A stretch of DNA of 64,000 nt from Lytechinus pictus (Eukaryota), in assembly GCF_037042905.1 (NCBI RefSeq), contig NC_087251.1:15254001-15318000 (forward strand), in the 5' to 3' direction. The notes below the pieces were generated by a model. The model was given only the letters and a program-made list of their open reading frames with translations. It had not been told where the DNA came from and did no database searches. The translations under genes were made by a program, and so were the position numbers. This document shows, one piece after another, positions 2,162 to 49,200 of this stretch. The stretch's first letter is position 1. The number at the start of each line of letters is the position of its first letter.

Positions 2162-5100
2162 GTAGTAAAAGTAGGAGGAGGAGGAGGAAGACAAGTAGGA
2201 GTAGGAGAAGATTACTGGAAAATATGAAATGTACTATGAAATTGTAATACAGGTATTTTGTTGTTGTTATATTGAAAGATTTGTCACCTTTCTCTTTCCT
2301 TTTCTATTATATAGTTGTAATGTTACTACATGTATGTATTTGCTTCTCTTCTACTTTCCTCCTACCATCCTTACCTCCCCTATGCAGTAGTCATCAGAGC
2401 TTTGGTCAGAGTATCAAGGCATCAGAGCAAGCTCCTCCAAGCTTCAACCTCAAGGTGCTCAAGCAGCATGTCATAACGTCGTTGGGTGAGGCAGTGGAAC
2501 ACGGTGTGTCCCACTGTCGAGATCCCATCGGTGGCAACTATAATAACCTCTTTGTGTAAGTTTTAATCACTTCCTATGATGTCAGCAGAAGTATGATCAT
2601 GCTTAACCATGAATATTTGGGCCTTAATTCAATTATTATTATAATTAATCATTGTCAGAATAATTTTCAACAAATCTTTCATAATAATATTCACTGAAAT
2701 TATAAGTCATTGCATTGCATTATAGATTTTCCAAATTTTATAGCATCAAATCAATCTTTGAAACAGAGAAGATACAGATAAATGATAGGAATATGAATCC
2801 AATTCATATTGACTCGCAAACTATTTCTTCAATAATTGTTTGTGTTAATTAATATGTTCATACATATAAACCTTCATATTGGTTCTTATCATTTTGTTCT
2901 CTATATCTTTTTACAGGCCTTTGTTACAATTATGTGATGCTCTTCTTGTTATCGGTAAGTGTGAACGATTGTTTTTTTTTTTTTTTTTTTTAAATCATGT
3001 CCAGGAAATCTTTTTTGTAAAAAAACCCTTCTTTTTTTATTGTCAGAAAACATCCTTCATAAAACTGCACCAGAAAATCAAAATGTTTCATATCTCTCTG
3101 TTCAAATTGCAATCGGCAGTGAGAATTAACAAGTCAATTTGAAGGGAATGGTTCAAACAATATCTTCACCTACAACCTAACCCATTGTGCTGTTCCCTTG
3201 TTATTTTACAGGAGAGTTTGACGATGATGACTTGAAGAGTCTTCTTATTCTCATTGATCCTGCTACATTCGATGAAACATACAAAAAAGGTATGTAACCA
3301 TTTAAAAAATATATGTATCTACAGTGGTGGACCGTGACCCGAAGGAGACAAATGATTGGAGTGGCACTGTATTCTTTGTGAACAATGCTGTGCCCCTACA
3401 ATGCTTTGTCTCCTCTGGGTCACGGTACGCCACTGTGTATTTAGATTTTTCATATGTTGAAATATGTATAATTATGCAGTAGTAACTTGTGCCATTTAAT
3501 TAGCAGTTGTATGTAAATTTAGGAGAAGTAGAATATCAAGATGTAAAAACAATAAGATTGAATATGGTTTGTCTGTTTATCTTATTTTGTGCACTTCTTG
3601 AAGGAAGACAACATTTCAAAGATAGATGTAAAGTTAGTAAATTCATTTGATTCAATTTAAATGAATCCAGTATGATATAAGTTATAATTCTTTCTGAAGT
3701 GTGAGTGACACCATTGTATAGTATTAGCTGCACGTTGATTGATGTGCTTTTTTAAGATAGTCAATCTAACTTGAACAGATTTGAATTGAACAAATTGATT
3801 TAATTTGATTTTATTTGATTCGATCCAATTTGATTTGTCAGGTGTAAGTGATACAGTTGGAATGCTTCAGATGCATCTGGATGAGCCTGTCAAGCTTGCT
3901 ATGTGCTTCCTACTCCAACATCTCTGTGACAGTCAGCTTAGGCATCGGGTTGAATCAATCATCAACTTCTCTGATGACTTTGTAGAAGAATGCCAAGCAG
4001 TGAGTACCTAAGTCCTTGTTTCCAGTCAATACTTAAAAAAAACATTCCCAATTCCATTTGGAGACTTTTTTGTATGAGAAATTTTGATCAAATGAAAATG
4101 GAAAAGATGATTAGGATGCTACCTTACTTAGCCAACTTAGCCAAATTTATTTATGAATGCTCCTCCTGCTGAGAGATATGTCAGGAAATGATTGAGGTAT
4201 TGCATTGACATTAGTGTAAAGGTTGTTCTTCCTTATTTTTCTTTATATCCCAGCAATCCTTAAATTGTGCTAATAGACTTCAAGTCTAAGTCTTGTATTT
4301 TTTAAGTTTCAATGTACTTTAAATTCATCCAAAGAAAACTGTAATTTCCCCATAATCATTTAATAATGAGTACATGAGCACAATAAGTTTCCATTTATGA
4401 ATATTCCATGAGGGTGGCTTGTATGATATAAACCAATTTATAACTTTAATGGGTTATATAAAAGAATAATATACATGTAGGAGCTTATGGTATTTTCATT
4501 GTTTATAATGTTTCTTCATATTTTCTTTTCTCTCCTCCCAGGATCAACTGAGAAGATTCTTAGAAGTTAGAAACACTGACATGCCTCCTGTCATAGCGGC
4601 CAAGAAAACCAGAGAATTCAGATCTACCCCTCAAGAGCAGGTAATGATGACAACCATTTTTCAAGATTTATTTGGTGCTTAATATGACAGTGCTGGCAAT
4701 ATAAGTGGTTTAATTTCAATTACAACTCATTGAAAATCCATGTAAAAGGTACAATTATTCAATATTTGAAATGTATTTCACACTGTTAGTCTGTAACCAA
4801 AGAGAAGGTTTGCTGATTTTTCATTAATTGTTATAAATCAAGTAATTTTGCATCAGTGGTCCCATTGCTAAAAAACGAATGTTGTTTGGTATAAATTGCC
4901 ACCACTAAATGTATCATAAATTAACATCAATGTTAAATCAGATGTTTACTTGTTACAGATAGTCCATGCAAAATGCCTGTGGGTATTACAATTTTCAGTA
5001 GTTACCAAATTGGGTTAGGTTGTAGATTATATTTATATTGTAACCATAAACAGATTAGGACTTTATTAAAGGAGAAATATATTGATTATGAATATGGCCT

Positions 5101-8100: not shown

Positions 8101-11100
8101 TGCGTTTCAAGGAAAAATACCTGCCAGGTACCCATTTACCTCACCTGGGTTGAGTGCAGCACATTGTGGATCAATTTCTTGCTGAAGGAAACTACACCAT
8201 GGCTGGGATTTGAACCCATGACCCTCAGTTTCAAAGTCCGGAGACTAATCCACTGGGCCACGATGCTCCTCATCTGTAGAGTCATAGAGACATCCGCAAG
8301 AAGAATATTGTTTTATTTCCCTACATATTATATCATATTTTCTTGCATGTATTTGAAGGAAAATGATTTCCAAACATTTATGCACTCTGTATACGTATTT
8401 TCAGCTGGGAAGTTGATGTAGATTCAATCAATAGCAATTGAACTCCCCATGAAATGAAATAAAAAGGAGAGAATTCCTTTTCCATACATTTGTTCTCTCT
8501 TTCTATTTGATCACATCTAGGGCCCATAGAAGAGAGTTGCATAATTTTGATTCTGATTGGTTGAAAATCAAGTTACGATTCAATTTTGAAGTTGCATTTG
8601 ATTGTTATTCTTTGTGCACCAGGTTCCTGGAATATAGATAAAGATTCATGTAGTTTTATGCAGTGTTATTCTGCTACATGTACATGTATGATGCATGACC
8701 TTTACAGAAGGAAAAAAAAACTATCCCTTTCATCATCTCTTTTTCTCTTGTCTTGTCTTGTCTTAGACTCCCTTTCCCATCTAATCTCCAACACAATGAT
8801 CAAATGGGCTGAAGAGAAGCATATTGAGGACCCTACCTTGGTGAGAGAGATGTTCAATCTATTACATCGTCAGTATGATGGAGTAGGAGAGGTAAGAATA
8901 TTCACTTCTTTCATGAGATCGATTATGATATATTGTTGGGACACTTTTTTTCACATTGCCAAGGAATTCTTGGACAAACTTACTATTCCCTGGTACACTT
9001 TAGTAGGAGGTGGATTGACACTAATGTGCTCTGGAATATGATTTTCTAAAGTAATTTTAAGTCTACCTAAAAAAAAAATCAAAGTGTTTGAAAAAAAAAT
9101 CTATTTAAAGCTAACGTAATTGTGTTATTAAACTATTGGGTATCAGAAAGTAAAAGTAGATTTTATTTCATATAATAGTCTAACTTCAATTTCAAGTTCA
9201 GTTAAAATTCCAAATCATCTTTCAGTTACCTTTATGTTTCATGAATTGAAACAAATATTAAATTCATGCATTGTAACAACGACTGAATAAGATATCAATG
9301 TCAGTATTTCTTGATGTTGTTGACTTGATTGTTTGCAAAAGCTGTCATTGATAAAGTGATATTTCCAGTCACTCAGAGCTCAGCTAGTATAATTGTTACT
9401 AATTGTATCTCCTTACAGCTTTGCCGTGCCTTGCAGAAATCTTACGTCGTAAGCAGCAATCAGTGTGATGACATCGTTCACCTCTTGACCTCGCTAGGTC
9501 AGATCAGGTCATTGCTGACCGTTCAGATGGGATCAGTAGAAGAGGAAGCACTCATTAAACATCTCTGGTAAGTTAAATGAAGGACTTGGTCTGTCTTATT
9601 GAAGTTTTGCGTGATGAAGTACATTATTTTGAAAGCAATCTGAACAAAGTGTATCTTATTAATACAAACATACATGGAGCCTCAGCCCAAAGATCTGTAA
9701 ATTCTAGAAATTGTTGTATTTCAAATCAAGACTTCATAGCTTGCTTAACTATTGGTCATGTCTTTGTGGTGGGGATAAAATATTTAGATAAGTCTAATGT
9801 AAAAAAATATTTGAAGACATACTAAAATTATTAATTGTATCTTTATTGCAACACTTCTTTCATTTATTTTTTTATTTGAAGACTTTCTCAAGTGTGTTTG
9901 AGTCAGTAGGTAAACTTGAATTTGGTGCAGTACAATTTCTTTCATAATTGTATCCACATCATTTCAAGATGATTTTTCATGATGTTATCATATAGGGAGT
10001 TGACGGACAACAAGGTATTCTACCAGCATCCAGACCTTATGAGGGCTTTGTGTGTCCACGAGACTGTCATGAATGTGATGGTCAATGTTCTTGAGAAGCA
10101 TCAGACGTCCATCCAACTTACCAGTGATCAGGAGGCCGAGTCCGCTGCCCAGAGCCAGGGAGGGGCTGCAGCAAGCACAGCAGCCACACCCAAATCACAG
10201 GTAAGGAATGAAATGTGTAGATCAGAGCTGGTTGCTCATCAAGGTGGGGTGTCTTTAAGCCCTGTAATGATACAATCAATCTTAAAGTCATCACGCTTAG
10301 TTCCGTTGAGGCCATCGTATTAATGTTACGATTGATGATAAGTGTATCTTTTGTGTGTTACAGGGATTTTCAATGGTGCTTTGCTGGAAAGACAAATATT
10401 ATTCAGTGGTCCTGTGGCCCCACGTGTCAAACTCTTTAATGTGGATGGTCTATGGGTATGGAAGGGGTGTGTGAATCATAGACTCTCTTTGGATGTTTAA
10501 GTTGGCTATTACTTTATCATGCATTTCATATCTCTGCATTGAACGGTGTTCCTTACGAAATTATTCATGTTTATTTGAGCATGCTAGTAGAGCAGAATTA
10601 TTTCCTTAAGATAAGCAAAATTTAAAAGAATAATTAAGTCTTCCATCATATTTTTTAATTTTGTTTTTCAGGTTGAAACTAAACAAACTATTAAAAAATA
10701 TATCTGAATACCTAAAATGTACTCATGGCATCTGGATGTAAGTCTGTGTATGTACTAGGGTTTTTGGAATATCAGCTTGTCTGATTATAAAATTAATTGT
10801 ATTTATACAATGTAGTTCTTTTCTTGGTCTCAGATTTGTTTTAAAGCTCTTATTTGGGTTAATAAAATTTAACAATATGTTTGTTTTGGGGTCTCCAGTA
10901 ATTTCATTCTGCTTCGGTTGCATTGAATAAACAACAAGTTTTGAAATAATATCCTCAAAAGTCAAACCCATCTATTGCTGATATTCCCCTCCCCCTCCCC
11001 CAAATGAAACCCCCTTCCCTGACAGGAATCTGATTTCAACCGTGAGCTAATCACCGCCTGCTCGCGCTTCCTCAGCTACTTTTGCCGTGTCAGCCGTCGA

Positions 11101-14100
11101 AACCAGATGGCCAGTTTCGATCACATCACTTACTTTTTAGAGCAGAGCGACATTGGACTTTGTAAGTGCTTGCAAAGATCGGAATGACAATGGAAATTTA
11201 CCATAAACAAACTCAAATTGCCTTGCAAGAGTTCACCGCTAACAAGAAATGGACTGTTCCGATCAGTTGTCTTGCCTGCAGACTGTGAGGGCGTCCTAAT
11301 TTTATATTTTGTGGTTGTTTTTTTTTTCACCCCTCACACTTGATGCATGCCTGGGTTGAATTCATATCAAAACTCACTGCATCATATTAATTGAACACAC
11401 TAATCATAGAAAATAGATTGCATTGGTAACTCAGATTTTTTGTTTATGTATAGTTATGTAGCCATTTGTAACAATAACATTTACACATTAATACCATAAG
11501 TAGTGGATAGGAATCTTAAAATTCTTAGATATTATTCTTTGTATTAATATAAATTGAAAGTATCAAATCGGTAAATTTTTAACAATAAAACTTTGCCTGA
11601 ACATCTTCATATTACATTATACACTTATTCATTTGTCATTTTCTAAATTGTTACCAAATTACCTTTGACACATAGTAATCAATTCTTGTAATTTAAACCA
11701 TTGCACAATATACACGCTGGAGTATTTTTTTAAGGATTTGTATTCAGTTAGGTCATGACAAATTATCTTGATGATTTGTTATAATAAATGTAAAATTTTA
11801 TTCTGACCATTTATTAATTAGTTTAATAGGGCTAATGAGTCAATTCTGAATTTTTCTTTCAAATCAAGTATCCGTACATCCATATTCTTTTCATTTATTT
11901 TCATTTGTTTGACAGGTACTCTATTTGATACATGTATATGAATTTCAATACTATAATCTTCCTTTGAAATTGATTTGATTATGCACAATAATGATAATTC
12001 AAAGATGGTGTAAAGTTTTGAGGAAGTGTCAATCCTCATTCAAATATGATGCAGCAGAGCTCAGCAATGTTTTTTGTACTGTTCAGATAAGGTAAGACAA
12101 GTCACACCAATTATTAATGCACTGTATATGCTTCAAGTCTTTAAGAAATAGTCCAAAATTGCACAAGAAAAGCCATGACATTATAATGGTTCTTCTTGGT
12201 ATCATGACCTAAAAATTATTTCATTATTTCACCATCAGTCATGTTGAAGGATGTCGGTGTTTTTACTCATGAGTATGCAACTTTGGACATATTTCACAAT
12301 TCAATAGCGCTTAACTTCAGAAGAATTTGATCGATCCCTAGTTGCTTGTTACATTGGAACAAAATAAATGACTCCTTTCCAACATATTTTTAAGGCTTCA
12401 GTGACTTTGTACACAGAAACTTTGCTTAGCTCTTTTGTGACATGTTTGAATGAGCCTATACACAGGCCAAACTTCCTATTCCGACTTACATTGGTTTGAT
12501 ACAGGTATATGGGTTGATGATATTTTGGGTTGTCAGCATGCTTAGTTTTTTATTGACATAGTTAATAGAATAAATGGAGAGAATGAACATTGCTGTGGTT
12601 TATGTTTATATAGAGTGATCTACATATGAAGCATGTTAGGATGAGAGTGTTAATGTGTTAATCCATTTTGTCATTCAACTATGCACAAATTTCATGAATA
12701 TGAGTATCAAATTAAAGTAATTGTTAACAATTCTAATCCTCCTTAAAAAAGTACATCTTCAAAATTTATATAAACAAGTCTCCATTAGGTGCTCTTTAAC
12801 GTTATAATATGAAAAGAGATACATTTTACGAGCTTCTTTTTAAGACTTGTATTCTCAAATGGATACAATGATAGGAAAGATAAAGAGAAATAGCCGATTA
12901 TCATATTCACTGAATGTATGTATTTGTCGGGTTTGGTTTTCCTCTTATCACCATCTAATATTGCAGGCATTCACCTTTGCAATGTTTGATCAATTTCACA
13001 TCCTACAAACCATGCATTTTCACCAAGTAAAGGTGAAAGCAAGCTCATGGGGAGTGTTTCATCAACCTTTTTGGCTGACAAGTCAGATCTGACAACATTC
13101 CTGATTTTGATTGGCTGAGAAGCACTGTTACAATGGTAACTGTCGGATATAACAGGACTAGTCAGACAAGTGTTTGACAAGTCCTTTTAAGAAATGTTCC
13201 CCTGATCACATTGCAGCATTACAAAGGTGAATGCACTGTGACCTATGGTGACCTTTAACCTCACACCTCCTACCCTTCTACCCATGTTTTTTTTTATTAA
13301 CCCTTTGAAGCAGATGTGCGTTTACAGGTTCCTGGCCCGCCAGGCCCGGATGTGCCGTTCCGAGGACAGGTTTGCCCGTGAGCTCATCGCCAGCTGCTGC
13401 CGATTCCTCTGCTACTTCTGCCGCACCAGCCGGCAGAATCAGAGGGCGCTGTTTGATAAACTCCTCTACCTCCTTGATCACGGCTTCATAGGGCTGTGTG
13501 AGTAGACAAATGATTCTCATCATTGTCTTGAAGGTTCTGATGATGCCGACTCTCTTCTGTATTTAAGTCAATAAGCAGTGTATTCTCTGGCAACAATTGC
13601 CCTTTGGATAATGGGTCCCCAATATATGAAAATTTCTCAATATGGCAGATTCTTCAATGATGAAAGTCACTTAAAAATATATGATCGGCATAATGCTGAT
13701 CATAAAAATAGACAGTCAATACTATGAACCTTTGCAAGCAAGTGTATATTATTTGCTATGTCCATTACACAACTTGCTGAACTATAGTTGAGTTTCCATT
13801 TGATATTTCAAACATTGTCATTAATTTGTGTGTAAAGAAATAGTATGAAGCCTGTGAAAATTCAACTTGATTCTTGTAAATAATGTTGAAGATAAATATA
13901 ATAGTGATAATTATGATGAAAGGATCATTCTTGTTCAGCACATCACAAAATTAAAATTGTTGAATCATGCACAAATTGAATTCAACCCTTACATGTACTT
14001 GGCATGGTGTGCAGATGTATTTTTCCCAAAATGAAATAATGCTTGTTAATTTTACCAATGGTTTTTTTTTCACCATGGGAAGGAGAGCTCTATGTTTCAT

Positions 14101-25234: not shown

Positions 25235-28200
25235 GGTGGTGGTGATGATGTGGTGATGATGTGGTGATGGTGGTGATGATGGTGATGAGGATGATTATTA
25301 TACTGCTGTAATTATAAAACTGATGTTGGTAATGATGTTGATAAGGATGATGATGATGTCATTGTTGTAGATGATTATTCTGGTGATGGTAATGATGTTC
25401 TGATAATAAAAACATGATGATCCAGAGCTGTGTAGTACGTAAATCATATGATTACCTTTAAAATGTGATTTTTCTAGTCTAGTGGAAGCAACCAGTTTCT
25501 TTTTTCAGCATCTTCTTCATCTCGGCAATTATGAGTTTTAATATAAACTTACATACATGTACCCTCTCGTAAAATAAATTCAAATGTATACTGTATGTTG
25601 TTTACTTTAAGTTCAATATTTTATTCATGATCATAACAGTGAAGAGGAAGAAGCAAAGAAGAGGTAATATAGATTGATTTTATGAAGGAATCATGGTTGT
25701 GTTGTGCATGTTTTCATTTTGTATTTGTACATGGTTTAATAGGGGCTTGAATCATTAACAGCCAAATCAGTTGAACTGTAGACCAATTAAAAAGATGATA
25801 TCCTCTCTCTTTTAGAATTTATTTCAGCTGTTGGTGAATCCCCTTCCCCTTCCCTGTTTTTGTGCATGTTATAGATATGCCCTTGGTGTCGTGGTTTGGA
25901 TATGATTTAGTAAAGTATGATTCAATAAGTCATAAATCTGCCAAACGAAGACAAATTTGAGTGTGTTTCTCTGTTAGCGCACTTTTAAAATATTTGAGTT
26001 GCCACTTGATGTAGGCCATGTGTTTTGTGCATGTAAGCTGTTGTCCAGGTCATTGACAATTTTATTAGTATTCATGATATCAATATTTCAATGTATTGTA
26101 TTTTGGAATTTTAATATTCAGTTCCGGAAAAAAATCTATGAGCCAGTTCTGAGGCTTGCTTACATTTACAGATTCACAGATACATGTATTCATTACCTAC
26201 ATGTACATGTATCCATGCCAATTTGATATTGTGCTGTTTGTCAAATGATTCTGTTGCAATTATATGTACATTAGGTCTGGTGGTCAGTTGTGAAATAGGG
26301 ATAAAACTTGTATTTGGTTGGTTGTTTTGTTTTTTCATTATGAAATAAAGAACCAGATTAGTTGTCATTTCTTTTTTATAATTATAATTTTTCATTATAT
26401 GAAAATATCAATAAATTTCATGGGGGACAGAAATATCTTAGTGTAACATAGACATCTCCTGGCAGGTTAGGGTACGGGTTAGGGTACATAGAGATTACAG
26501 TGTGATGTATAATTCTTGACTGTAGTTGGTGTTAGTTTCTGCATGCATGTTTTACTTCATATTTTGGAGTTGTATAATTAGGTAGATTACTTTCATTTCT
26601 AGATTATCTGTAATGATAAAGTCATGGTAGATTATTGAAGACTAGCCAGTTTGTTGTTGATGACTTTCATTGGTCATTGTTTCAAAGATTATTTGTTGAT
26701 TTGTCTTAAATCGATATTGTAAACAGTGGTTTTCCTGCTTGCATTTTTGCATGAAGGTTTGAATTGATGCTGATTGATTTTTTTGTCAATTTTATTTTAA
26801 CACTTTTTGAACCGATGACAGAAATGCATTTATCAGCCGAGCAAAGTAAGTATGGTTGGATAACCCATATGAAACATACATGTTCATTTTCAAATGAATA
26901 AGGATCAAAATTCTTTTTAATTATGGAGTTGAAACTGCTTTATGAGAAATCACCCTCAATTATTTAAAGTTTGCCGCTCTAGACAAGGCATGTAATTGAG
27001 CACTATTATAATCATCTTGCAATGATTATTTCTCATTGTGGATGATTTTCCTTACAGACACAGCCTATCTATGGATCATGATGGCATCATCAGAGGACAT
27101 AGCACCATAGAGAAAAGATTTGCCTTCAATCTCCTTGACAAACTCCTGCATTATGTGGACAAATCACAGGCAAATCTCAAACCAATGAGGCGCAGTCAAG
27201 ATGGTGGGTACTGTGATGGTTTGAACAGTTATTGTGATTAGACAATTTATAATATTTTTTTAAAAACTTTCTTTGATCAGCTTTATTCTTTAAATATGCA
27301 AAGGTATTTTCATCTTGTTGCTACATTTTGCATTTCAAATTTTATGCAATAGAAGTAAATAGATTTTGATTACAGAAAATATATTTCAAATAATTTTTTT
27401 TCCGATTTGTGGAGAAAACAGTGGTTTTGACGTTTACACGGCATTGCCAATTTAAGGATTTTTATGATCATTTTCCTCGCTTTTTGGTATAACACAAGAG
27501 GTATTAATGTTATAAATATGTTAATGTTATAAATATGTCCACTCCATGTGTTATTTTGAAGGAAAAAAAAGTTCTGGGATGATGAATTCCAGATCTGGCC
27601 ATGGTAGATATCTAAGTTGAGAATATGTCTAGAATCCATCTTGTACACAGTTCTAAGTTTACCAATGCAAATGACATGATATCCAATGTTGGTTTCACTT
27701 ATCCAGCTTTCCGTTCTTCCAAGAAAGAGAGCTCAGGAGATAGAGGGTACAAGTTCTTTGCCAAGGTATTTTTACTCTATATTTTTAATGAATATTTTAT
27801 TTAATGTATTTACAAGTTAATATATGTGAGAGAAAAAATATTTTTTACTCTTTTTGCTATCAAATAATCTATATTATGAATATGATCATAAATATGAAAT
27901 AAATTTGCTTGATGGTTAAAATGTAAAGTTACCCATTTGAAACCTTCTCCTATTAATAGAACCACCTCCACCCCCTGCTTCATTTCCTACCATAGCATAT
28001 TCCTTAATAATTTTCTGCATCCTAACTCAAAAGTAGTATTACTCTTACTCCTTCCTTTTACTTTCATCTCATAAATGTCATTTTTTTAATTATCTGGATA
28101 TCGCAACCTAGATTTGAGGGTAACAAAATAAAAAAAAATAATCCTAAATCCCAATTGACTGAATTTTATCTCCAGGTTGTTCTTCCTCTGATTGAGAAGT

Positions 28201-31200
28201 ACTTCCAGGCTCATAGCTCTTACTTTGTAGCTGATCCCAATGCTCCTCAGGCAGGCAGGTCAGGTGGATCATCCACTCGGGAGAAAGAACTTGTATCAAG
28301 GTAATAAACATATTCAAAAACTTTATGTACTTTGTGGTGCATTCATTATATTTTTTATTGGATAGAATTTTAAAGTCACTGTATTTGTTTGCAGATGATA
28401 AATGAAAATGTGTTTTGATTCTGGGGTTTATAAAGCATTTTTAAATAGCACTGATTTATACAATCTAAATGCATTTGAGCCAAAAACATGTTTTTGTTCA
28501 AATGAGAGATAAATGCAAAGCTGTTTTTAAATGCATTTTAAACATCAGCTGTTTCCAGTTTCAGAGAATATCTTAGCACTGTGCCAAGTTTACAGCCACA
28601 ATACAAAAATATATATATATAGACCTTACAAAACAGCACAATGCAACCCTGCAGTGACAAGACAGGTTTACCTGTTGTGTAATGAGGTGATAAACACAGA
28701 CTTTTGAGAAATACATTGGTAAAGGTCTTTGGAAATGTAGTTTAATAGGTACAGAATCATATTTATAACTGGAAAAGCTGATTACGCAGACTTATACATG
28801 CCTATGAGAGGGACCTCCTGTGATATATATTATGTTTGTAGGGGGAGCAGAGGAGGAGGTTGGGTGAGGGGATGTTAAAGACACCATGATACCATCAGAG
28901 TATACTCTGTTTTCTTTGTATGATGTGCATTATCATTTGCCACTCTTGACTGAGGAGTGGGTTATTCTGTCTATGTATGAAATGCAACCAGCAGCCAAAA
29001 CTCATTGCCATAGACAGTGTAATGATTTTGAAAGCCACTTTCTTGACACAAAGTCATCGTGGGAATTTTTACAGAGCAGAGATTTATGATTTTACCAGTA
29101 TGAATTTAAAACTTTAACAATGTTTATGGATAAGAATTTGATTGTTTAATTATCATCAAGGATCACCCTTTAATAATAAAGTTGTAAGATGATATATTCT
29201 TCAGCTATGATATTGTCAAATCATTATAGTAGCTTTGAACAATATGCATGTACAAGTATATCTCTCAATTCATTTATAGTATATTGAAGTTGCATGATTT
29301 CATCTATATCTGGATCTGACGTGGATATCTTTGTATTACTTTTATGCCTTGAAAATGTTTCGCTTTGCGTGCTACTTTCTGCATCATGCATTTTGTATAG
29401 CTTTTATACAAGTTTATTATAGACTGGATTTTGTATCGTGTGTAGTATATTTGATAAACTCTCAAAACTGTATCCATCCAGTGTGATATTAAAAAAAAAA
29501 TTAAAGATATATTACCCCATGAATACCCCTATCTTCATTTCATTCATCTACATTAAGATAATTTTTTTTTTAATTTTTTGGATTATGTGATATCTGGGTA
29601 TATATGTTTTATATTGCCTTAGGTGCATCTTGTGTGGAGAGACAGGTGAAATGGTTTCTGGCCCAAAACTTATGTTGTTGCTTAAAGAACTCCTACTTTA
29701 GTCATTTTATTGTTATCATTTCATATAAGGAAATACTGTATTCCTCTTGTATGCCCCCACATTCCCTCTTTCCCTTGGTCCATGTCATTCAATTATCAAT
29801 CTTTCCTTTATACATATTTTGGCTCAGCTTACTTTGTTATGAAATGCTAGCTTTGTGGTTTTGCTTAAACCAAACTAATATCTCTCTCTTCATTTCTGCC
29901 CAACTAACCTTGTTTGCAATCGATCAATCATTGCCTATAGTGAGATGATGTTTATGCCCTATGCATCTCATGTGGAGAAAGCTATGGTAGCCAGGTGAGA
30001 ATATAGTGCTGCTATGTCGGGTAACTTCTTGTTTGGTGGATGGTTTTGTGTATTTAGAAGTCACCCACAGTGTTGATTATTTGTGCTTGCATGAACAGGT
30101 TGTTACAAAATTTTGTCTTTTTCCATTTGTGATTGGTTTCTCTAGCTAATAATAATAATATAGGATTTGTATAGCGCACATATCCACCTTGCTAGGTGCT
30201 CAAGGCGCTCCTATATTACCCCGGCTATGCTAGTCTGCCGATTCTGATGCGCACAGCTTTTTGAGGAATTACTTCCTGCCAGTACCCATTTACTTCACCT
30301 GGGTCGAGTGCAGCACAGTTGGGATAAATTTCTACAATTTATTTCTCTCAAAATATTATTTAGGAAAGCATTCTCTGCCAAATTGCTATTAAAGAGCCAT
30401 GATTAGACACAGGTATCATACATGAATGATTTTACCCTTATGATTTTGATTTTATTCTTGCCTGCATAGCATGAGACTATAGGTGCTGCTTTTCCGACGG
30501 CGACAGTGACAGCGGTGGTGATGGCGTCATCAACATTTAAATCTTAAGCAAAGTCAAATCTTTGAAATGTTATCATAAGTTTGAAAGGATGTGGACCTAT
30601 TTCATGAAACTTGGACATAATTGTAATCAAGTATCAACAATCGTCTTGAATGAGTTTCAGGTCACATAATTAAGGTCAAAGGTCATTTGGGGTCAGTGAA
30701 CTTTCACTATTTATGGATCTAGTTTATGAAACTTGGACATAAGGGTAATCAAGTACCACTGATCATTTTTTTACGAGCTTTAGTTCACATGATCAAGGTC
30801 AAAGGTCATTTAGGGTCAATGAACTTAGTATGTTGACATATGAATTGCGTTTTTGTGATTATTTATTTGTCTTCGTTGATTTCAGAGTCAGCGCTGCTGC
30901 TGTATTGAATTGCGTAATGCAGGCAAGACTGCCAGAGGCGTTCCACTTGTTTCTTATCTTATTTTTTTACTGTCAGTCAGCAAAATTTTGTAATGTTTTA
31001 CTGTTAAAATATGAAGAGAAATTCATACATGTATTTCAGTTCTATACAAACTTTTCCCTATAGTTTTTTCTTGTACAATCTTCCAATTTAATTGGTATTC
31101 TTGAATTAGTTAAAAATATAACATCTTTCTTTGAGCTTTAATCATGTTGTATGTCTTTTGGTGAAAGTTTGCTAATCTCTACATAAATTACTCTTCATAT

Positions 31201-34200
31201 TGTTATTCTAAGAGGATATATCAGTACATGTAGCTTTGAGTATGTTTTTTTTTTTTTTTAGTTCAAGATCATTGTTTTTAAGGATGGCTAATGTACTGTA
31301 GATTAGTGTATTCTGTTGCATTCCTGGTATGAGTTAGGAATAAACTCTTGGCCTTCATGTACATGTATGTACAAATTTATATAATCTTTCTAAATCCTGT
31401 AAAGACTATATATTAAGATTTATTCCTTTCAAATATGATATCTTGAAAGGGTGTTCTCTTCAAAATAATGCTTCTTTTGAATGCTATCAAATGAACTTTT
31501 AATAAGTCATGAAGCATATATTGGTAAAAATGTATAAAAGCTGTTACCAAACTGGTCTTTGCCAGATCCCTGCAGCACAAATATTTGCAATCAATCTCAA
31601 ATTTTAAACAACTATTTTGATTGGTTGATAATGGGTTTGTTAAATGATTTTGATTGATCATTGTCATTGTATAATTGATTGTGAAAATTTTGTGTTACTG
31701 GGCCTGAGGACAATTCTGTTTTAAACTTATAGTTAATATAGGCATTTTTCACAGAATTATATCAAATCAATAATGTTCCATTCTCATTCATTGTTATCCT
31801 TTACTTCATTTTGCATGCCTGTCACTCCATAGTGTAAGCAGGAGTACTGTATACTTGTACACAAATGTATATATATTGCTTTGTTTATCCAATATAATGA
31901 TTCTTTGTGTTATACTATGTTCTTTAATTATTGCATGCTGTAGTATACATGTAGTTTTCAATCTAGTTCCACATGAGTATTTAGCATTACTCTTCATGTC
32001 TAATAATTAATTTTTATCTCTGCATATTATGTTATGTCATATATCCAAGTCTTATTTAGAATATTAGAGGTAAATAGCCTCTCTTTGTAGTCTTGTATAT
32101 TAGAAAAAAATAAGAATGAAAATGATGGAAAATTGCTCCATAGACATCACTATTGAAACAATTTCTCTGAAAATAACAAAATCTGCTGAAATATGTATGT
32201 TTTAAGAATATAATTTTATTTACTTTGTTGTTACTGTAATTTTAATTTTTTTCTCTGAAATATATTACAAAATTATCATATCAATAGTAGTTTTTTTTCT
32301 CCAAATGTTATTCAGAAAAGTCTAATGTCAATCTAGATTATTTGCAGTTAGCTAATCTACCTCCTTTGATATATTGTAAAGAAGAAATGTACCTTTTGTT
32401 GGACTCTTCTTAAAAAAGTGTCTTCTGAAAAATGTACTGATTGCTACTATATACATTGTACATGTATGTGTTTACTTTCTGAAAATGATATAAGGTTTGT
32501 ACAGTATTAATGGATGTATAATTTTCAATATTATGTACCAAATGGATCATATTTTAATTGTGTTATTGTATATGTACTTGTAATGAATTTATTGAAAATA
32601 TAAGATGTGTGAATAATTCTGGGATTTATTAATAGATTTATAGAAAATTTAAGATGATTTGATATACACTGACAATTGACAATATATATCTTTCTTTATT
32701 TTCCAGTCTGTTCTGCAAACTTGCACAGCTTATTCGACAGAAGATCAATCTGTTTGGTGAGTGAATGAGATCATTCTGACTTCTTCATTTTTCAATTCTT
32801 CAATAATTGACAGTGTTATCAAAATAAAAAGAAGTTTTCTGTGAAAATGAAGAGGTAGTTCCGAGTACGTAGGTGTTAACCATAAGCTATACTCATGCTA
32901 TACAAATACATGTATGGTCTGTTGTAGTCATCATTGGTCCTTGTATCTATGTGTATCCATTCGGGCTACTACCCTGTCAGTGTAAGGGTTCTTTATATTT
33001 CTCCTGCCAGTGTTTTATACATTTGTGTAGTATTTATCCTATTTAATTAATTTGAACCCTAATTATTAGGAATCAAATTTAATGAAACAACTACCTCAAG
33101 GTAGCTTTGATACTATTAAGAACATTTTTTTTATGAGATACTTTGTAGCTTGGTCAATGCAATAGGCCTGTGACATAAATGCAGAGAGAAGATTTTTTAC
33201 AAGATTACTTATGGTCCCTACACATAGATTTATAGCATTCTGCACATCTGAAAAGTCATTCATTCAAAACTAATCACCTTCTTGTTAATGCCTGACTGTT
33301 CTTTAGATATTGTTACTATTTGATAAACACTAACTTGAACTTATTGGTTTTTTTTTGCAGGTCGTGACCTGCTCCCCTTCATTCGCTGTATAAGAGTGGT
33401 TGCCCAGTCAATAGATGCAAGGTATGTCCGTTTCATGTATATTACAATCCTTCTCATTCTCTCTATATCTCACACACATAGACAGACACACACACCCACA
33501 CACAATGGTTTGTGTCCTCATAGCATTGACCTAGTCATCTAATCTTAGAGAGACCTTACTTTTACAAAAGGCCAATGCATTTTCCAAAGTCTTCTGAAAA
33601 CAATGTTTTGTTATGAAATAACAGGAAAGCAAAATCTTAGTATGAAATTGTGAAAAACTGGTTACCTTCTATTTGTTATGAATATTGATTGAGGGAGATA
33701 GAGCCCAGCATTCCTTCTAAAAGAGGACTAGATACATGTAGATACAGGGTTTATCTTTACCATGACCTAGGTTAATTTATTAGAGCGCCACTAAACATTT
33801 TTCATATAAATGTGCATTCCAGAGAAATTGAATGTTAAACGGTCCCCTTTTTTCTTAATCATACATGCAACCACACACTCAAACTCTCTTCTTTATTTCA
33901 TGAATGGAAATCCACAATACATGTACCTACTCACACTGTATGTTACATTCACATCCTAAATTTGTCTTATCTGTCTTAAATCTAGCAAGTAATAGTACTT
34001 TGCTTTTCTATCACACACTTTACACTCCACAAACACGCTATATCTCTCGTATCCCCTTTTCCAGACAAAATTCAAACTTCATTTTCTGATCACACCGACA
34101 AAGTCTACACAGTAAGCACTTGCACACACACAAAATCTACTCTTCTCCCTTCTCTCTCTCTCTTTCTTTCTCTTACTATCTCCTATGTAGGATTGGTTTT

Positions 34201-37200
34201 CACTGATTGATTGCATTAAAAATTATGTTCAATCAGTTATAAAAATCATCAACTGAGTGAAGTGATCAATTGCTATACTTTGTGTTATGAAGCACTCATA
34301 TACTTCATTACATTGCTATAATAGAATTCTTACATTTTCATCCAAAGTAGAAAAGACAAATAAAAAAAAAAGAAAAATAGAAAAATAGTATGTGCAGACG
34401 TGTTGTAGTGAAAATGTATATTGATAAATAGTTAATGGTTTGATAGCTTGCAAATCAAGTGAACTGAATTGCAGATTTTAGAGAGGAAAAAAAGAGGTAG
34501 GAATTCTCTTAAAAAGCAAGCAACAGTATACAATTTTAGGTCAAGTGTGAAGGGGTTATGTTCCTACTACTTACCCTCAGGATACGTGCCCTATATTTCA
34601 TGTTATCAGTTGATGATTATTAGTCTATGTATACAAACACACACACACAGTCATTTCTTGGATCTTGTAAAGTTATATTGGCATGCACCAATGCCATGTT
34701 CAAATTAGTATGCCATAGTAGCTGTAAGACAGACATAAATCAAAGTATTTTATTGGCTTAAAACAAAGTATATCATGATTTTATTAAATTGATGACTAAT
34801 AACAAGAAACAGGAGATTGGTATATGCCTGTGCTACTAATTAACCAACTTCATTTGTTCTTAGTCCGCAGATCGGCCTTTATATTTCAGAATATATTGCC
34901 AAACTGTCAAGAAAATAAAATAAATTATTATTAGGGCAGAAGTAAAACAAAAATTCCAAATATTGTTACATCTAAAACTGTCAACATAATCCATGAGTTT
35001 GTGGGTTTTATTGTGCCTTTGATTTTTTTTATAATTTGGTATCCCTCCAATTTTTACAGATACATTTATATTATTGTATTTTTTAAAGTTATATTGCCTT
35101 AGAAATGCTGTTCCTATATAACTTTATTTAATAACTAAAGAGTTGTATATAGATGTATGTACATGTATCTGAATTTAGAACTAATACCATAGCAGTTGTG
35201 AAAAATGCATTGTACAGTTTCAGTAAAGGCATAATGCTTTAATAATAAAGGATTTTGGATTTGTTCTGCAGTTGATTAATAATACTATGTAATTTTCCAC
35301 ACAGCTCACACATTTTTATTTGTTCATCATAACCCGTTCTTTTTTCCCCCTAGAGTTCTTTGATCTTATAATTTGCTATCCCATGCACAATTTGTTTTTT
35401 TTCATCATGCTTATCTCTATCTCTGTCTTATTACAACCATAGGGTGTCTCATTCAGATGGGCGAAGGTACCGAGTGTGATTTTTTTCTTTAACGTGTGGG
35501 TTCTTTCTTCACCCCCTTTCCACCCTCCCCATTTAATTCTGCCATTTACGTTGTCAGCCATCTTCCTCATCAGCGTTGAAATGCGGCTTCGTCTTGTTTT
35601 GCCCTTTCATGCATCTCATTGATACAAAGGCCCAGTAGCACAAAGCCTAGGGATTAATTGTTGAGTTGATTTGTATGATTGATTGCTGATTATGATCAAT
35701 GCAATCAATTCTAAAAATCTGCCATGCAATCAATTGCTACGATTTATGTTACAAAGCCCAGTTATGTGTATCATCTTTTCGTAATCATTCTTGTTTTAGT
35801 TTGTTTTGCCCTCCCCCATCTTTGCATAATTCCCCCCCCCCCTCGCCATTCCCCTCCCCTCACAGTTCACCTTTAAGATTTGATTTCATTAAAAAAGCAC
35901 CCATACCACACCCATCTCTCGACCACTTCCATCATTACTTGTATAGTTTTGTGAAAAGAATTATATCAAACAGAAAAACTGGTGCTTTTGAGCACCTTTA
36001 AACTATTTTATGAACAAGACACTGTTTTTTTAACAAATGAAATGTAGATTCCTGTTCTGCTAGTTGAGTTTCTTTATCAAAATTCATTTCTCAAAGTGTT
36101 ATTTGAACAATGACAATAATTTGTAACCCTGATTTGATTTCTTCTGAAGAACTTTGCTTTAATTGTTTCAATGGTTTCCGTGTTTGATTAAATGTGAATT
36201 TGAAGGAATATATCGCAGCATCAATATGTGTTTTGCAGCATTGTAATTTACATTATCTTGTCAGTTTGAACAATAATTTTATGTGCTGTAACAATTGCTC
36301 ATTAAGTCATAATGATAATATCTTCTGTTTCTGTCATTGTTATGAATATATATAACACTGTTCCTTTACAAGTAAAGGTCTATTTCTCTTCTATTTTTAT
36401 TGATGAGTTACAGAGTTAAACAAGTTATATGGCCTCTTATAATAATAATTTTTTTAAATGTTTTCATGTTTAAAATAAGACAGAAAAAAATGTGTGTGCA
36501 TGATCTCTTCAGCTTTCATCTTTCACCGTTTGAAATTTTTTTTTCACAATGATTCTTGAATGGATCATTTTCGTCTCACTTGCACCTGATTTTTTTTATA
36601 TGTTCTTCAAATTTTCTTCAGATGTTGCCATATACAGTATCAATATAGCTGCAAATGTTTAGATAAATTCATTGTACTTTTCTCATGCCAATGTACCTGA
36701 AAATATGCATATAAATTCAAGGTAAACTAAATAATGGTACCATTGTAGTTTTTTAAGTTTCATATTAAAAAAAATATTATATAAAACAGATTCTCGTGTA
36801 GGTGGTAGATATGCATGATCATATAGATGCTTACTATAATTACTCTTAAACCATTATCTTTACCTCTGAAGCTATTTACAATGTAGTGGTCAGGGACACT
36901 TAACTTTAAATCTATTTGTACCATACTCATTATTTGAGTATATATATATATATATACTTCTGGTAATATACCAATATCAACTTCATTTGTCTTATCAATA
37001 ATGTGATATCAACATTCTTAGTCAAACTTACCATGATTATATAATGTTACGTTTTCATCAAGTACGGGATGTTTGAGTCTTCATATCATTCATAATTTAG
37101 AAGATTTTTTTCTTTTTTTCTTTGGGGGGAGGTGAAAAATACTGACTAATCACTAATCAGCGCTATATTCACAGTGAATGTACAATTTCAAAATTTTGAG

Positions 37201-40200
37201 ACATGTAAATGGTTATTGGGTTCTAGGCATTATAACAAATTTTACCTTAAAGGAGCTTAACACAATTTCTTATACAATTTGTTAATGTCCATTTATGAAA
37301 TACGAACTATGCATGTAACATTATTTTCAAAGAAGAAACACAACCTATCCATCTGTTTAATTTATTAGTTCTGTTGTGAAGCACAGTGCAGACGCCATCA
37401 AGAATGGCCTGCTAGTCTTCTTCCGCCATGCTTCTGATGACCTCATTGCTACGGTGGAATCGGTCACCTCAGGAGGGCGCTTTACACATATCAAGTCTGG
37501 TCAGGTTCACAAGCACAGCCTGGCCGTCAACTATGTTCCAGGTGTGCTGGTTCCAGTCTTGATCAGCCTCTTCCAGCATCTTGCCAGGCATAACTATGGT
37601 GCTGATTTACTTTGTAAGTTAACATTATTGAAAATTATAATGGTGATATTCAAAATAATAATTGTAATGATAACAATAGTTTGTTGTTGATAATGATACA
37701 AGTAGTGATTACAGTGTTAATTATAATAATGTATATTTAATAGTTGTATTCAGCTTCTAAATATAGGATAAAATCATGAATCCTGTATAAGATATTCATG
37801 TATGAATTTCTAGTCTAATTTTTCATGCTTAGTAATTTTAATGTGCAAATTGTGTGTATATTGTGCATGGTTTAGCAGAACTTGTAGAGTCCTACCAAAT
37901 AAATGTATAAAAGTTCAGCTCTGTTAGGTAGTTCAGCTCTGTTAAGTAGTTCATCCTGATTTTTTTTTTTTGGGGGGGGAATAAGTTCATTCATTCATTT
38001 GTAACAATAAGTATTATGATGATGAAACATGTACATTTTATTCATACATTTACAATCCTTTCAATTTTTATTTCAGTGGATCAAATCCAGGTGTATTGCT
38101 ATAGAATTCTCAGCTGTCTCTACAGGCTGGGTGCTGATCAGTCTATCTATGTTAAGAAGTAAGTCAAATCAATCAACTTGAATCATAAACCATTACCTAC
38201 TGGAACCAGGTTGTTCCTGTACAAAGCGTATGGGATTAACAGAATTCAGAAGTCAACTGGTTAAGATAAAGGTTGTCTAAATTTGTATATATTGTAAACA
38301 GATGGTAGAAAACATTCTAATGGTTATACATGTATTTGTCTTGTGAGTTTTTATTTCTTTCTTTTTAATCAACTGGAAAATTTAGCTCAAAGGGTTTTAA
38401 ATTGGCCACATCATAAAATTTCCGTATTCATTGAGCTCTAGAGCTCAAATTTTTATCTCTGATTTTGACGTAACTTCTTTGTCTTGTAATGTAATTAATA
38501 TTTCATTAACTGTTGGGTATTGGGATCTCTTTATTACTTATTTTAGTTTTATATCTGTTTTGCCATATGTTTGTAATGTTTTGCTCCATCATGTGTAAAA
38601 ACAGATTAAATTCTCAGTTTCTACTACCATGATTATCAACATCTTCTGCACTTGTGTTTAAATTTTTTATTTAAATGAGTGATTCTGCAATTGTTATCTC
38701 TAAAGGATGAAAAAATTTGTCTTTTGTTTTCTGCTTATCTAAAAGAAATAGTACGCATCAAAATAATTCTTTCTGAACCAACTCGTAAAAATACAGCTAC
38801 CTAATTCTGTAAGTGATGAAATAGCTCAAAAGTATTAACTGTATTAACTTTAATTAACTTTAATACAGATTGCTTACTGCAGCATATCCGAAAAATAGGT
38901 TCTTTTACTGTTAGTATTGAGCTATTTAGATCTATTTTAGGATGTGTTTTCTATACCAACTTGATTAATTATCTCTATTTATAGCGAGGAGGCCAAAGAT
39001 GTTGGAGAGAGGTAAAATCAGGATTGAATGCCATACATCAATAGCCTTCTTGCAGTGACTAACACCCATGATGTATATTATGTTTAATAAATGATACATA
39101 CGTTTATGTACGAAAACCATGGAAACTGGAGTTTGGTTTTTAAGATGTACGCAGATGATACACAAAAGCTGCAAAATGTTGAAAACTTGAAAATTTTGTC
39201 ATTCATGGTTTGATAATAGGACATTCTCAAAAAGCTTCTCAGTAATTTGACTTTGTAATTTCTTTATCATTTGCATCTTTTGCAGTCATTCTTTGCAAAT
39301 TATTTGCATTGCCTGTGGAAAAAATGCATTTACTTTAATTGTGATTCAACTGCACAGTGAATGGAAGATTGTGATTTCCACATAAATCTGCAATTCAACA
39401 TTTCTTATTCAGAATGCAAAAAAAAAGAAAAAAATAATTTCATGTATACTCAGGAGGGGAGGGAAAAGGGGTAGAAATAACTTTTATGACCATTGTTCAT
39501 AATTTTAATTTGTTTAGGAAGTTATAAATCTGCTGCCAAATATTTCATCCACTGTATAAAGACACAGTTGGAGTTGTGTAGTTATGGATTACAAAAGCAT
39601 ATAAATAAGGAATATATTTTAGAAGTACATGTATTTCACTATGAATTTGAATGCAGACATTAAGAGGCGACATGAGATAGAAGTTTAAAGTGTTTTCACT
39701 TCAGTTGATTTCTTTTCAGCACAATTTTATCATTGCACTTACTAATCCTCATATAAACCAGTTTGACAGTATTTGACATATGGTGCATTGTAATGAGATC
39801 CCTATCACATCATTTTGAAATCTTTGTTCCAGATTTCAAATTTTGAAATCTTAGTTCCCGATTTCAAATTTTGAAACTGCATTTAAGAGAGTATGTTACT
39901 TTTGAGCTCTAGCTTATAATTTTAGTGGATCTAAAGCAATTCCTGTCAAAGTTTTTTTTTTATTTCATTTAGTTTCCATTCCGTGAAACTTTCATCATGT
40001 ATGTTTTCAAAGTCAGTTTCAAAGTTGTATTATAGTGTAAATTGTATGCCTGCATTGTTTCATAATTCTGCATCATAGAATATATTACATACTTTCAAAA
40101 TAAAAAGTACGGTTCATACATTTGATACTGTAATTGGATTATATATATTGGATTGTAACAGTAGAGCATAATTTTTGATGTTTTGTAAAAAAAAAAAATG

Positions 40201-46200: not shown

Positions 46201-49200
46201 ATTTCACAGGTAACAAAGTGTGCTATCAATAATGTCCATGTTGGTTTTATTTTCACTGATGTCACTTGTCCAACCTTACTGAAATTTCCTCTTCTTTATA
46301 TTGTAAATGCTGCCCAGAAAAAAATTACATCTTGTGTATATGCTAAATGAGATCTTTTTTAATTGTACAAATATTGGCTTATACCAGTAAAGTATAAATT
46401 AAGAGCATGTTAGAGTCCTTTTCATGACAATCCAACTCATTTGTTTAGAGATAGGGTAATATCTCTGGCTCAAATCTATCATCACCATGAAAAATTACAA
46501 CAAAAATATTAAATCCAGACATGCCCAGCCTCTAGTCTGATGCATGAGATTTACACACCAGGGACTCTTGCTTGTCGTCACTATATATCTGTCTCATACC
46601 TACAAGTGCAGTACTCCATTCCTTCATACATCATACACAACAATTGGTGATCCCAAGTCAAGATAGTGTGCAGACTAAAATATTGTGTATTATCTGTCTT
46701 TGTGACTACTTATTTTTGTGATTCTGTGTAATTTTAAAGCATTTTCTCTTTTCTCTGCAGAAAGAGACAGACAAGGAAGTGCGTGACTACCTACTCCAGC
46801 AGCTGCATATTCAAGAGAAAGAGAAGGTGGAGGAAACGGCCCGGCTGACAGCCCGTAGTCATGCCCAAGCCTATTTATCACGAAAACCATCCGTATCTTT
46901 CTCATCATCACCACCCTCATCATCATCTTCTGCTTCAGCTCCTGCACTCGCATCTTCTTCTGCTACCAGCACCACTACCAGCACCTCTTCCTCTCCTCCT
47001 CCTTCCTCTTCTTCCTCCTCCTCCCCATCCTCAGTAGCTCCTCAAGAGTCTCCCCAGCCGGCCCACATTAGAACCCGGAGGCAGTCCATAGCCGCCTGGC
47101 AGTCTGCTGCTTCTCGTGTCACTGCTGCTCGCATAACTGCAAGTGTCTTGGGTTTTTCTCTTCCCTTCGTTTCGCTTTTATATTGCTTCAAGTTCCCTAC
47201 CCACTTTCAAGATTTCAATTTGCCCTTGTATAAACGAGCATATGTATCAGCCATAATTTTTACAAAATCCAATCATAGATTTATAAAGTTAGGTCAGTTT
47301 ACCTCTGAATAAACCTTGACCATGATTGAAGAATCCAATGACAGATTTCATTTCCACAAAGAATTCTTAGTTAAGTTTTAGTAAAAAAAAAAAGAAATCA
47401 TGGTGATATGATGAAATGGATAGCAATACAATACAGAGGACTGTAGATTTTAGTAGAAATCAGGATTGTTAACATGTCATGGATATTTTTCATAAAATTT
47501 TAAAACATGGTGCAATTTTCTCATTTAAATAAAAAATACAAATACATAATTCAAAATTCATAATGCTGGCAACATAGTATTTTGATAGGTTTTATAAAAG
47601 ACAAGAATTGAAATTTTTATGTAGGTCTTATTCCTTTGTTTTTTTTACATAATTTTGATGATTTTTAAATGCTGTTTATTATTTTCTTTGTACGGCCTCC
47701 ACTAAAAAATTCATGTGACTTCCAAATGTAAGTCTTTTCCATTTGTCATTATACATTTTTATGACATGAAAATAACAACTAACAAGAGATATCTGTCCAG
47801 TACATATTTTTCCCTTTCCATGCCATATTCCGACCCCTTCATAGAATTATACCATCTGCAATAAAAATGTCCTTGCAATATATATCCTTCATTAAATAAA
47901 CTCTTAATTGTAGTACCTTATAGTAATTGTAGCACCTAAGAATGTTGCCCTTTCTTACAGTATAGGTATACTCTAGCATTAGAGATTCTGTTTTCCTCTT
48001 TTATTTTCATGAAGGGGATGGTGGTATGAAAGATAAAAAATGATATTTGAAAACAATCTTTTTTTTCTTCCTTGGGGGTTGAAAATGCATCTTACATGTA
48101 TATTCAACTGTATGATAAAAAATAATCTTAAATTATAAAAAAAATCAGCTAAAAGAAATGGCTGAAATATATTAGAAACGAAGGGCCATTTTTTTCTCCA
48201 AACCTCATTCATTTGTTACAACAGTTAACAATGTGTTCCCAGATATGAAATGCCAAAAGCCTATTATTGATAGCCCGGCTGGAAACAAAATGCAGGAGGA
48301 ATTACTGAAAATTGATGAGGTTGGAGGAGTGCATGTTGTATTTGATGCTGTGCTGTGGAATTCTTAGTATATTGTTGCTGTTTCCATGTACATTTATTTG
48401 CACAGCCTGTTCACCATGCACTGCTCATCCATCTATCTTCTCTTGAAATGCTGTTAATACCATTCTTAAAAACAAAATTAGTTCTCTTTGAGAGAGAAGG
48501 GAGAAGAAATAATTTCTTCGTATTGAAAAAAAAAATGGGGTTCCTAAAAACAAAATTGATTGTTCTTTCCTTGAGGGAGGGAGAGGGAATAATTTTTTCT
48601 GATTTATAAGATGATTTGGATTCTCAATATCAAAATTAATTGTTCTCTTATTAGAGAGGGGAGAGTGATCATATCTTATTAAAAGAATAATGGGATTCTT
48701 AAAAATGAATTGGAATAAATTAGAAGAGGAAAAAAATATCGATAGATTAAGAAAAAGAGCATAATCATTTAAAGCATAGTTTAATCAAGTTATTAATTAT
48801 ATTTGTTAATAGAATGATTATTTGAATGCATCATATGTGTATTAAATAATGAAGTTTCTGCTTGATTTAACTCTATCAGTTACATGTTTTTAGCTAGACA
48901 TTCCTCTTTTATCCCTGTTCATTGTTTTTTTTTTCTTTACTGCTTTTTAAAATAAGGACCTATTCCCTTAATTTTTCTGAAGATAACCCCATTACCAAAA
49001 TGGTTACTTTATGAAATACAGAGCCTACATAAAACCAAACAAAAAGTCATTACATTAACACACCTTTTTTGTTTTATTCCATATTTTTAAGGTGAAAGGT
49101 CTTCAGAAATCTTTTTTAAGAGAAAAAAATATTGTAATGTTACATCTATATAAGGATTGATGATTATAGCATGACCATTGTGTAACAAATGTAAAGAGCT

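Follow-up and report, generated by a model that had tools for sequence, protein, structure and literature searches.

Invertebrates carry one ryanodine receptor (RyR) gene, which is diversified by splicing. The 2002 cloning of the sea-urchin egg RyR reportedly identified splice variants and may list the insert described here. Our literature search, which was thin in subscription papers, returned no description of this RyR cassette event.

Among described systems, the closest mechanism appears to be that of the Piccolo C2A domain, in which a nine-residue splice insert displaces a core secondary-structure element (PMC2924343, PMC2241867). Based on the available text of these reports, the two cases are alike in that a short insert added by splicing occupies the position of a core element and displaces the original, the RyR side being predicted. 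In that text, the Piccolo element is a beta-strand, the displacement was solved experimentally and a change in calcium binding was measured, whereas the RyR element is the start of a helix and its displacement is a prediction. Unlike the Piccolo insert as portrayed there, the RyR insert duplicates the element that it would displace, and the modeling suggests that the cassette acts like a homologous substitution. Tandem exon duplication-derived substitutions, as outlined in PMC8373072, likewise provide two homologous versions of a segment in one gene, and are old and conserved. As compared to the class outlined there, the RyR cassette duplicates part of an exon and is included along with the original copy, which makes it an insertion. 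The SPRY2 exons a and b of insect RyR are also homologous versions, but the accounts in PMC6026295 and PMC3989282 place them in a different RyR domain. Finally, the code of neuronal exons dependent on eMIC comprises a weak 3' splice site, a long AG exclusion zone, and UGC, UCUC and CUAAY motifs, and the text of the same report names Drosophila RyR as an eMIC target (PMC8797185); the UGC motif is also treated in 10.1101/2024.09.17.613571. The RyR cassette shares acceptor features with these eMIC/Srrm234 exons, but its 54 nt exceed the size of a microexon and its donor is strong, unlike those of the fly eMIC exon set as described in PMC8797185.

Gene assignment and exon structure

The window, a 64,000-nucleotide stretch of Lytechinus pictus DNA, covers the middle of the RyR gene on the + strand. 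Over approximately 2,100 residues of aligned cores, its exons matched L. pictus XP_063957443.1 and XP_054758833.1 with 0 mismatches; the same cores contained 17 mismatches to L. variegatus and 64 to Strongylocentrotus purpuratus. Exon 28176-28300 corresponds to residues 3001-3039 of RyR1, 2966-3004 of RyR2 and 2860-2898 of RyR3, with weak E-values (0.013-0.03). A fold search using a wider fragment confirmed this match, the top hits all being RyR1-3 with E-values down to 1e-11. In protein searches reaching proteins of up to 2000 residues, 28176-28298 alone yielded no match and exon 37370-37612 alone matched one fragment.

The exons, splice sites and motifs around the cassette all lie on the + strand. 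The constitutive exon at 28176..28300 (125 nt, phase 0-2) encodes a helix, the variable HD2/BSol1 loop and the original helix start, and was covered by unbroken contigs (28174-28300) in runs X5, X6 and X1. Its donor, 28298..28306, serves both 29941 and 32707, as judged from the joint to 29941 in X5 and X6 and from loose ends matching exon 32707 in X8 (6 reads) and X9 (3 reads). The alternative cassette exon at 29941..29994 (54 nt, phase 2-2, flanked by AG..GT) is present in contigs of X5 and X6 and in three RefSeq models, and adds 18 residues that end in a second copy of the helix start. Its donor, CAG/GTGAGA at 29992..30000, is joined to 32707 and scored 10.6, above 40 of the 48 real donors. 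The downstream constitutive exon, 32707..32756 (50 nt), holds the remainder of the helix.

A partial duplicate of the upstream exon

Checking of the sequence reproduced the coordinates, phases and translations given for the cassette and the upstream exon by the initial annotation, which had described the cassette as a duplicate of the 3' end of that exon. To score the two copies, we derived a 10-column profile of the helix-start motif from 34 non-urchin RyRs. The cassette copy scored 19.4 bits and ranked first of the 127,936 six-frame 10-mers in the window. It also ranked first when the comparison was confined to stop-free stretches that run up to a phase-2 GT (3,364 in total), the next unrelated stretch scoring 3.9. 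The upstream exon's own copy scored 11.2 bits and the homologues themselves had a minimum of 21.5. Thus, the intronic copy does fit the RyR consensus at least as well as the exonic one, as had been proposed. The final 30 nt of the two exons were identical at 19 positions, which fits duplication of an exon end plus its donor. Exon 29941-29994 is a real exon and a partial duplicate of the upstream exon end; it would have originated by duplication of that exon's 3' end together with its donor.

All four possible joins are open in frame: 28300>32707, 28258>29941>32707, 28300>29941>32707 and 28258>32707. The cassette itself is a multiple of three in length and contains no stop, as expected of a frame-preserving cassette. 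The two segments are also homologous and either version is open in frame, two properties of homologous mutually exclusive exons.

Cassette inclusion in sequencing runs

Nine sequencing runs were listed, none of which is on record as RNA. Six were examined (X1 and X5-X9), with X2, X3 and X4 left out. Runs X5 and X6 are two samples from a single study with no recorded library type; the GT..AG splicing of their contigs led us to treat them as RNA. For X8 and X9, approximately 6% of each raw run was read. An initial placement of reads was swamped by the repeats at 30148-30950 and its joint table lacked exon junctions, so that only depth and one contig were used from it. Two or more high-copy repeats lie there, and had heavy, strand-specific coverage in the RNA runs.

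X5 and X6 each contained one contig comprising 28271/2-28300, 29941-29994 and the first 26 nt of exon 32707, spliced at GT..AG. The depth of this cassette-including contig was 11.2 in X5 and 2.7 in X6. Two of the junctions that the initial annotation listed for checking, 28300>29941 and 29994>32707, were therein observed, the former in 2/2 including runs and as the sole upstream junction. By contrast, X8 contained 6 raw reads spanning 28300>32707 at zero cassette depth, and X9 contained 3 such reads, likewise at zero depth. With 0/9 including reads in X8 and X9, inclusion in these runs is below about 28%. Skipping was further represented by a contig, so that it was seen in raw reads of two runs and in a contig of a third. 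The bin 29767-29963, which holds the first 23 bases of the cassette, had zero depth in X7, X8, X9 and X1.

A 31-base node of the X5 graph, whose last base lies one position beyond 28300, had a depth of 20. Judging from the graph, this corresponds to about 11 including and about 9 skipping molecules, or inclusion in approximately half. With both inclusion junctions and the skipping junction in hand, the exon behaves as a cassette, and alternative splicing is borne out by its inclusion in X5 and X6 and its skipping in X8 and X9. The exon is thus sample-dependent, and almost certainly additive, being included behind the full upstream exon. The evidence for inclusion consists of two contigs of one study, whose library type is unrecorded, plus automated gene models.

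A separate contig of X5 and X6 ran from the exon into the intron (28301-29500) at a depth like that of the cassette, and ended beside a 10-base A run (29491-29500). Translation of this read-through meets two stops at once. The contig likely reflects internal priming on unspliced RNA, or conceivably an intronic 3' end.

The exon-internal donor

In the initial annotation, the upstream exon's internal site CAG/GTCAGG (28256..28264; donor after 28258, phase 2) was the pivot of a mutually exclusive switch: its joining to the cassette would exchange one version of the helix start for the other. Using a weight matrix built from the gene's own donors, this site had the top score of the 286 exon-internal GTs in 50 exons, 8.6 versus 7.7 for the real donor at 28300. 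Only 0.7% of synonymous recodings of the upstream exon gave an equally strong phase-2 site in a test that was post hoc, and 3.4 sites of this score were expected gene-wide by chance upon synonymous recoding.

No use of the site was seen. In X5, X6, X8 and X9 (4/4 runs), 28258 coincided with no joint, loose end or contig break, and the predicted junction 28258>29941 was not seen; no read, contig or gene model uses 28258, and the swap form occurred in 0/6 of the urchin protein models covering the site. Moreover, the two versions, which in a mutually exclusive pair never occur together, were included together in X5, X6 and 3/3 including urchin models. Only 28300>29941 was seen, the outcome that the initial annotation had itself equated with a plain cassette. 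Thus, the cassette is not a mutually exclusive exon and the proposed splice mechanism is unsupported.

A weaker version of the switch is that 28258 is coupled to the cassette at least in a third isoform that is minor or confined to some tissues, in which 18 residues would replace 14. The length of the resulting loop would be near normal. Since rare variants are lost from contigs, and the raw runs were sampled at only about 6% each, low-level use of 28258 is conceivable, as it is from the site's rank as the gene's best-scoring exon-internal GT. Weighed against this are the silence of the site in all four runs and six models, the number of such sites expected by chance, and the loop lengths of RyRs, none of 128 of which has that of the swap form. 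We consider such an isoform decidedly unlikely.

Two other observations concern alternative splicing in this gene. First, 11026-11161 is a clean, in-frame candidate exon of 136 nt (AG..GTAAGT) that has the same phases as the annotated 187-nt exon 13311-13497 and duplicates its 3' part. Based on their sequences, these two are likely a true mutually exclusive pair; all RefSeq chains examined use 13311-13497. Second, an alternative 5' splice site occurs elsewhere in the gene, within 46761-47131: from its start at 46761, one exon either ends at a donor at 46826 or extends into a longer, low-complexity form, the latter being used by L. variegatus isoform X3.

Conservation of the insert

Conservation was compared at the protein level. 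Six urchin proteins cover the site. Three include the cassette behind the full upstream exon: XP_054758833.1 from L. pictus, and XP_041469245.1 and XP_041469246.1 (isoforms X1 and X2) from L. variegatus. The other three, XP_063957443.1, XP_041469247.1 and XP_030855111.1, skip it. The cassette peptide was identical in the two Lytechinus species. In the brittle star Amphiura filiformis, XP_072031407.1, a single model labelled 'low quality', has a homologous insert of 16 residues in this position, and there too the first copy is complete and precedes it. The additive form is therefore already present in automated RefSeq predictions, and these four carry no comment on duplication, conservation, structure or regulation.

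The Amphiura and Lytechinus inserts both start with S-E and share P-[YF]-A-S-x-x-E-x-x-M-V-A at their end. Both are uncharged at the two positions where the consensus has its first lysine and second glutamate. Against the profile, the two Amphiura copies rank in the reverse order to those of Lytechinus, the old one scoring 26.7 and the new one 11.8. The insert was absent from 10 crinoid sequences (nine Antedon isoforms and one Anneissia) and from the 15 isoforms listed, of 28, from the hemichordate Ptychodera.

The wider RyR set was assembled from a single search by taking the best 120 of its 1,717 hits and adding cluster members; it included no starfish or sea cucumber. It contained 151 long RyRs, 128 of which matched the counting pattern; among the 23 unmatched, those showing the motif had it without the insert. 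In the 128, the motif-to-motif distance ranged from 32 to 82, and six had a long loop: three from Lytechinus, that of Amphiura, a moth model and one with an unrelated insert. P0030 has a long loop that is no duplicate. P0198, a partial RyR model from Operophtera brumata, was set aside as a probable model artefact: at about residues 1990-2020 it has a near-identical tandem repeat of the same helix start, which is either an artefact or an independent duplication.

The identical peptide in two Lytechinus species and the same-site insert in the brittle-star model answer the question of conservation among orthologues in the affirmative. On the simplest reading of these sequences, the insert arose once before echinoids and ophiuroids split. 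The exon borders of Amphiura are not visible, and independent duplication is therefore possible. With one origin, the duplication would predate the split of sea urchins and brittle stars, which occurred roughly 480 million years ago.

Predicted fold of the two forms

Fragments of the long form (P0232) and the short form (P0273) were folded using AlphaFold and the same 19 homologues. The short form was predicted to have one helix running from residue 82 (T82) through the junction (82-101), with a pLDDT of 94 for residues 81-90. In the long form, the helix started at residue 100 (H100), on the cassette copy, with a pLDDT of 92 for residues 101-110. The shift between the forms was exactly 18 residues. 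The old copy lay in a long low-confidence loop, with pLDDT values down to 48. MAFFT placed the homologues on the old copy, so the alignment leaned against displacement. The predictions concern a 281-residue fragment and a 20-sequence alignment, with mean pLDDT values of 61.9-78.1 for the five models; the long-form query also has another, small insert, and the copy adjoining the downstream helix is favoured by chain continuity alone.

A rival reading is that the old copy keeps the helix position and that the 18 new residues either form a bulge or kink the helix. This is consistent with the alignment of the homologues to the old copy, with that copy's retention of two invariant residues and of more of the charge pattern, with its higher score in Amphiura, and with its persistence as a short helix in the long-form model. 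However, the same model has the new copy in the helix at high pLDDT, and the A-S cap, the glutamate and M-V-A stand in exact register in the two inserts, a constraint that a free loop would not need. In addition, the short-form helix is continuous across the insertion point, so a plain insertion requires a break in mid-helix. We judge this reading improbable. Displacement, in which the helix begins on the new copy and the old one is extruded as a loop, has a good probability based on the models, and the loop tolerates changes in length, as indicated by its range among the 128 RyRs.

The replacement of one helix version by the other envisaged in the initial annotation thus fails at the level of splicing and is retained at the level of the protein, as an AlphaFold prediction. 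With the long-form helix starting on the cassette copy, the swap likely occurs within the protein, a second donor being unneeded. Taken as a whole, an additive cassette whose copy of the helix start is predicted to supplant the old one, leaving the latter in a loop, is the best explanation and one that we hold to be reasonably probable.

A putative subunit-contact loop

In human RyR2, two contact pairs between subunits are described in the text of PMC10372021 and PMC9299551: H2995-D1070 and the C2991-C1078 disulfide. C2991, on the HD2 loop, faces C1078 of the neighbouring subunit, and the disulfide is reported to raise calcium leak (PMC10372021). H2995, and possibly R2988, are proposed as the BSol1 side of the RY1&2 contact stabilised by ARM210 (PMC9299551). 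Using the 35-residue offset between RyR1 and RyR2, H2995 is the residue directly before the A-S cap. In urchins, the equivalent residue changes from Gly to Tyr between the short and long forms, and the corresponding residues in Amphiura are Thr and Phe. As cysteine is missing from the urchin loop, the redox link of RyR2 has no direct counterpart there.

By analogy with RyR2, inclusion of the cassette probably lengthens and recomposes a subunit-contact loop. Specifically, it would lengthen the HD2/BSol1 loop, set an aromatic residue at the position of RyR2 H2995 and drop two helix charges. The changed loop would alter how the subunit engages its neighbour, and hence channel leak or gating. A measurable effect on gating is conceivable, at somewhat less than even chances.

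Acceptor signature and regulation

The cassette acceptor region, 29851..29940, contains an 88-nt AG-free zone, two CTAAY, a UCUC-rich tract and two TGC. The acceptor scored -2.0, below all 49 others of the gene, as befits the weak 3' splice sites of eMIC exons. Four of those 49 have an AG-free zone as long; none has two TGC, none has two CTAAY, and none has as many as the cassette's six UCUC/CUCU words. All four eMIC motif features occurred together in 1/50 acceptors, that of the cassette. The pattern had been spotted by eye before the published feature list was compared. Thus, every sequence feature of the neuronal eMIC type is present at this acceptor. Neuronal control of inclusion is somewhat favoured by this signature, and the eMIC/Srrm234 system would drive inclusion in neurons.

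The TGCATG noted by the initial annotation, an Rbfox-type word, is indeed present at 30088..30093. It was rejected as regulatory evidence: 4/51 exons have one within 150 nt downstream, with 0.089 expected per exon, which is a chance-level occurrence.

The weakness of this acceptor, the lowest-scoring in the gene, and the absence of the cassette from three raw-read runs would also suit tolerated splicing noise or a decaying, functionless duplicate. We consider this highly improbable given that, by the comparison of 31-mer and contig depths in the graph, about half of the spliced molecules of X5 include the cassette, that the peptide is shared by two Lytechinus species and the insert's site by a brittle star, and that the acceptor bears a specific regulatory signature.

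The window also contains two frame-preserving microexons of 24 nt, 25640-25663 and 35443-35466, which are present in some Lytechinus models and not in L. variegatus isoform X3. That at 35443 has an 85-nt AG-free zone and a UCUC tract.

Implications

The modeling suggests that when part of an exon is duplicated and spliced in as a plain cassette, the outcome in the protein can be a homologous substitution. In its fullest form, our tentative and rather speculative proposal is that an ancient echinoderm neuronal switch swaps helix starts within the folded protein, without mutually exclusive splicing, and rebuilds a subunit-clamping loop. It would amount to a naturally occurring gating variant, located at the contact stabilised by the drug ARM210 in human RyR2, and would exemplify 'hidden substitutions'. 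If true, these would form a class that isoform catalogues file as insertions, and the pattern of a partial-duplication cassette is searchable genome-wide. The event lies on a loop that in RyR2 contacts the neighbouring subunit and affects calcium leak; the two urchin forms may therefore be a ready-made pair for tests of gating.
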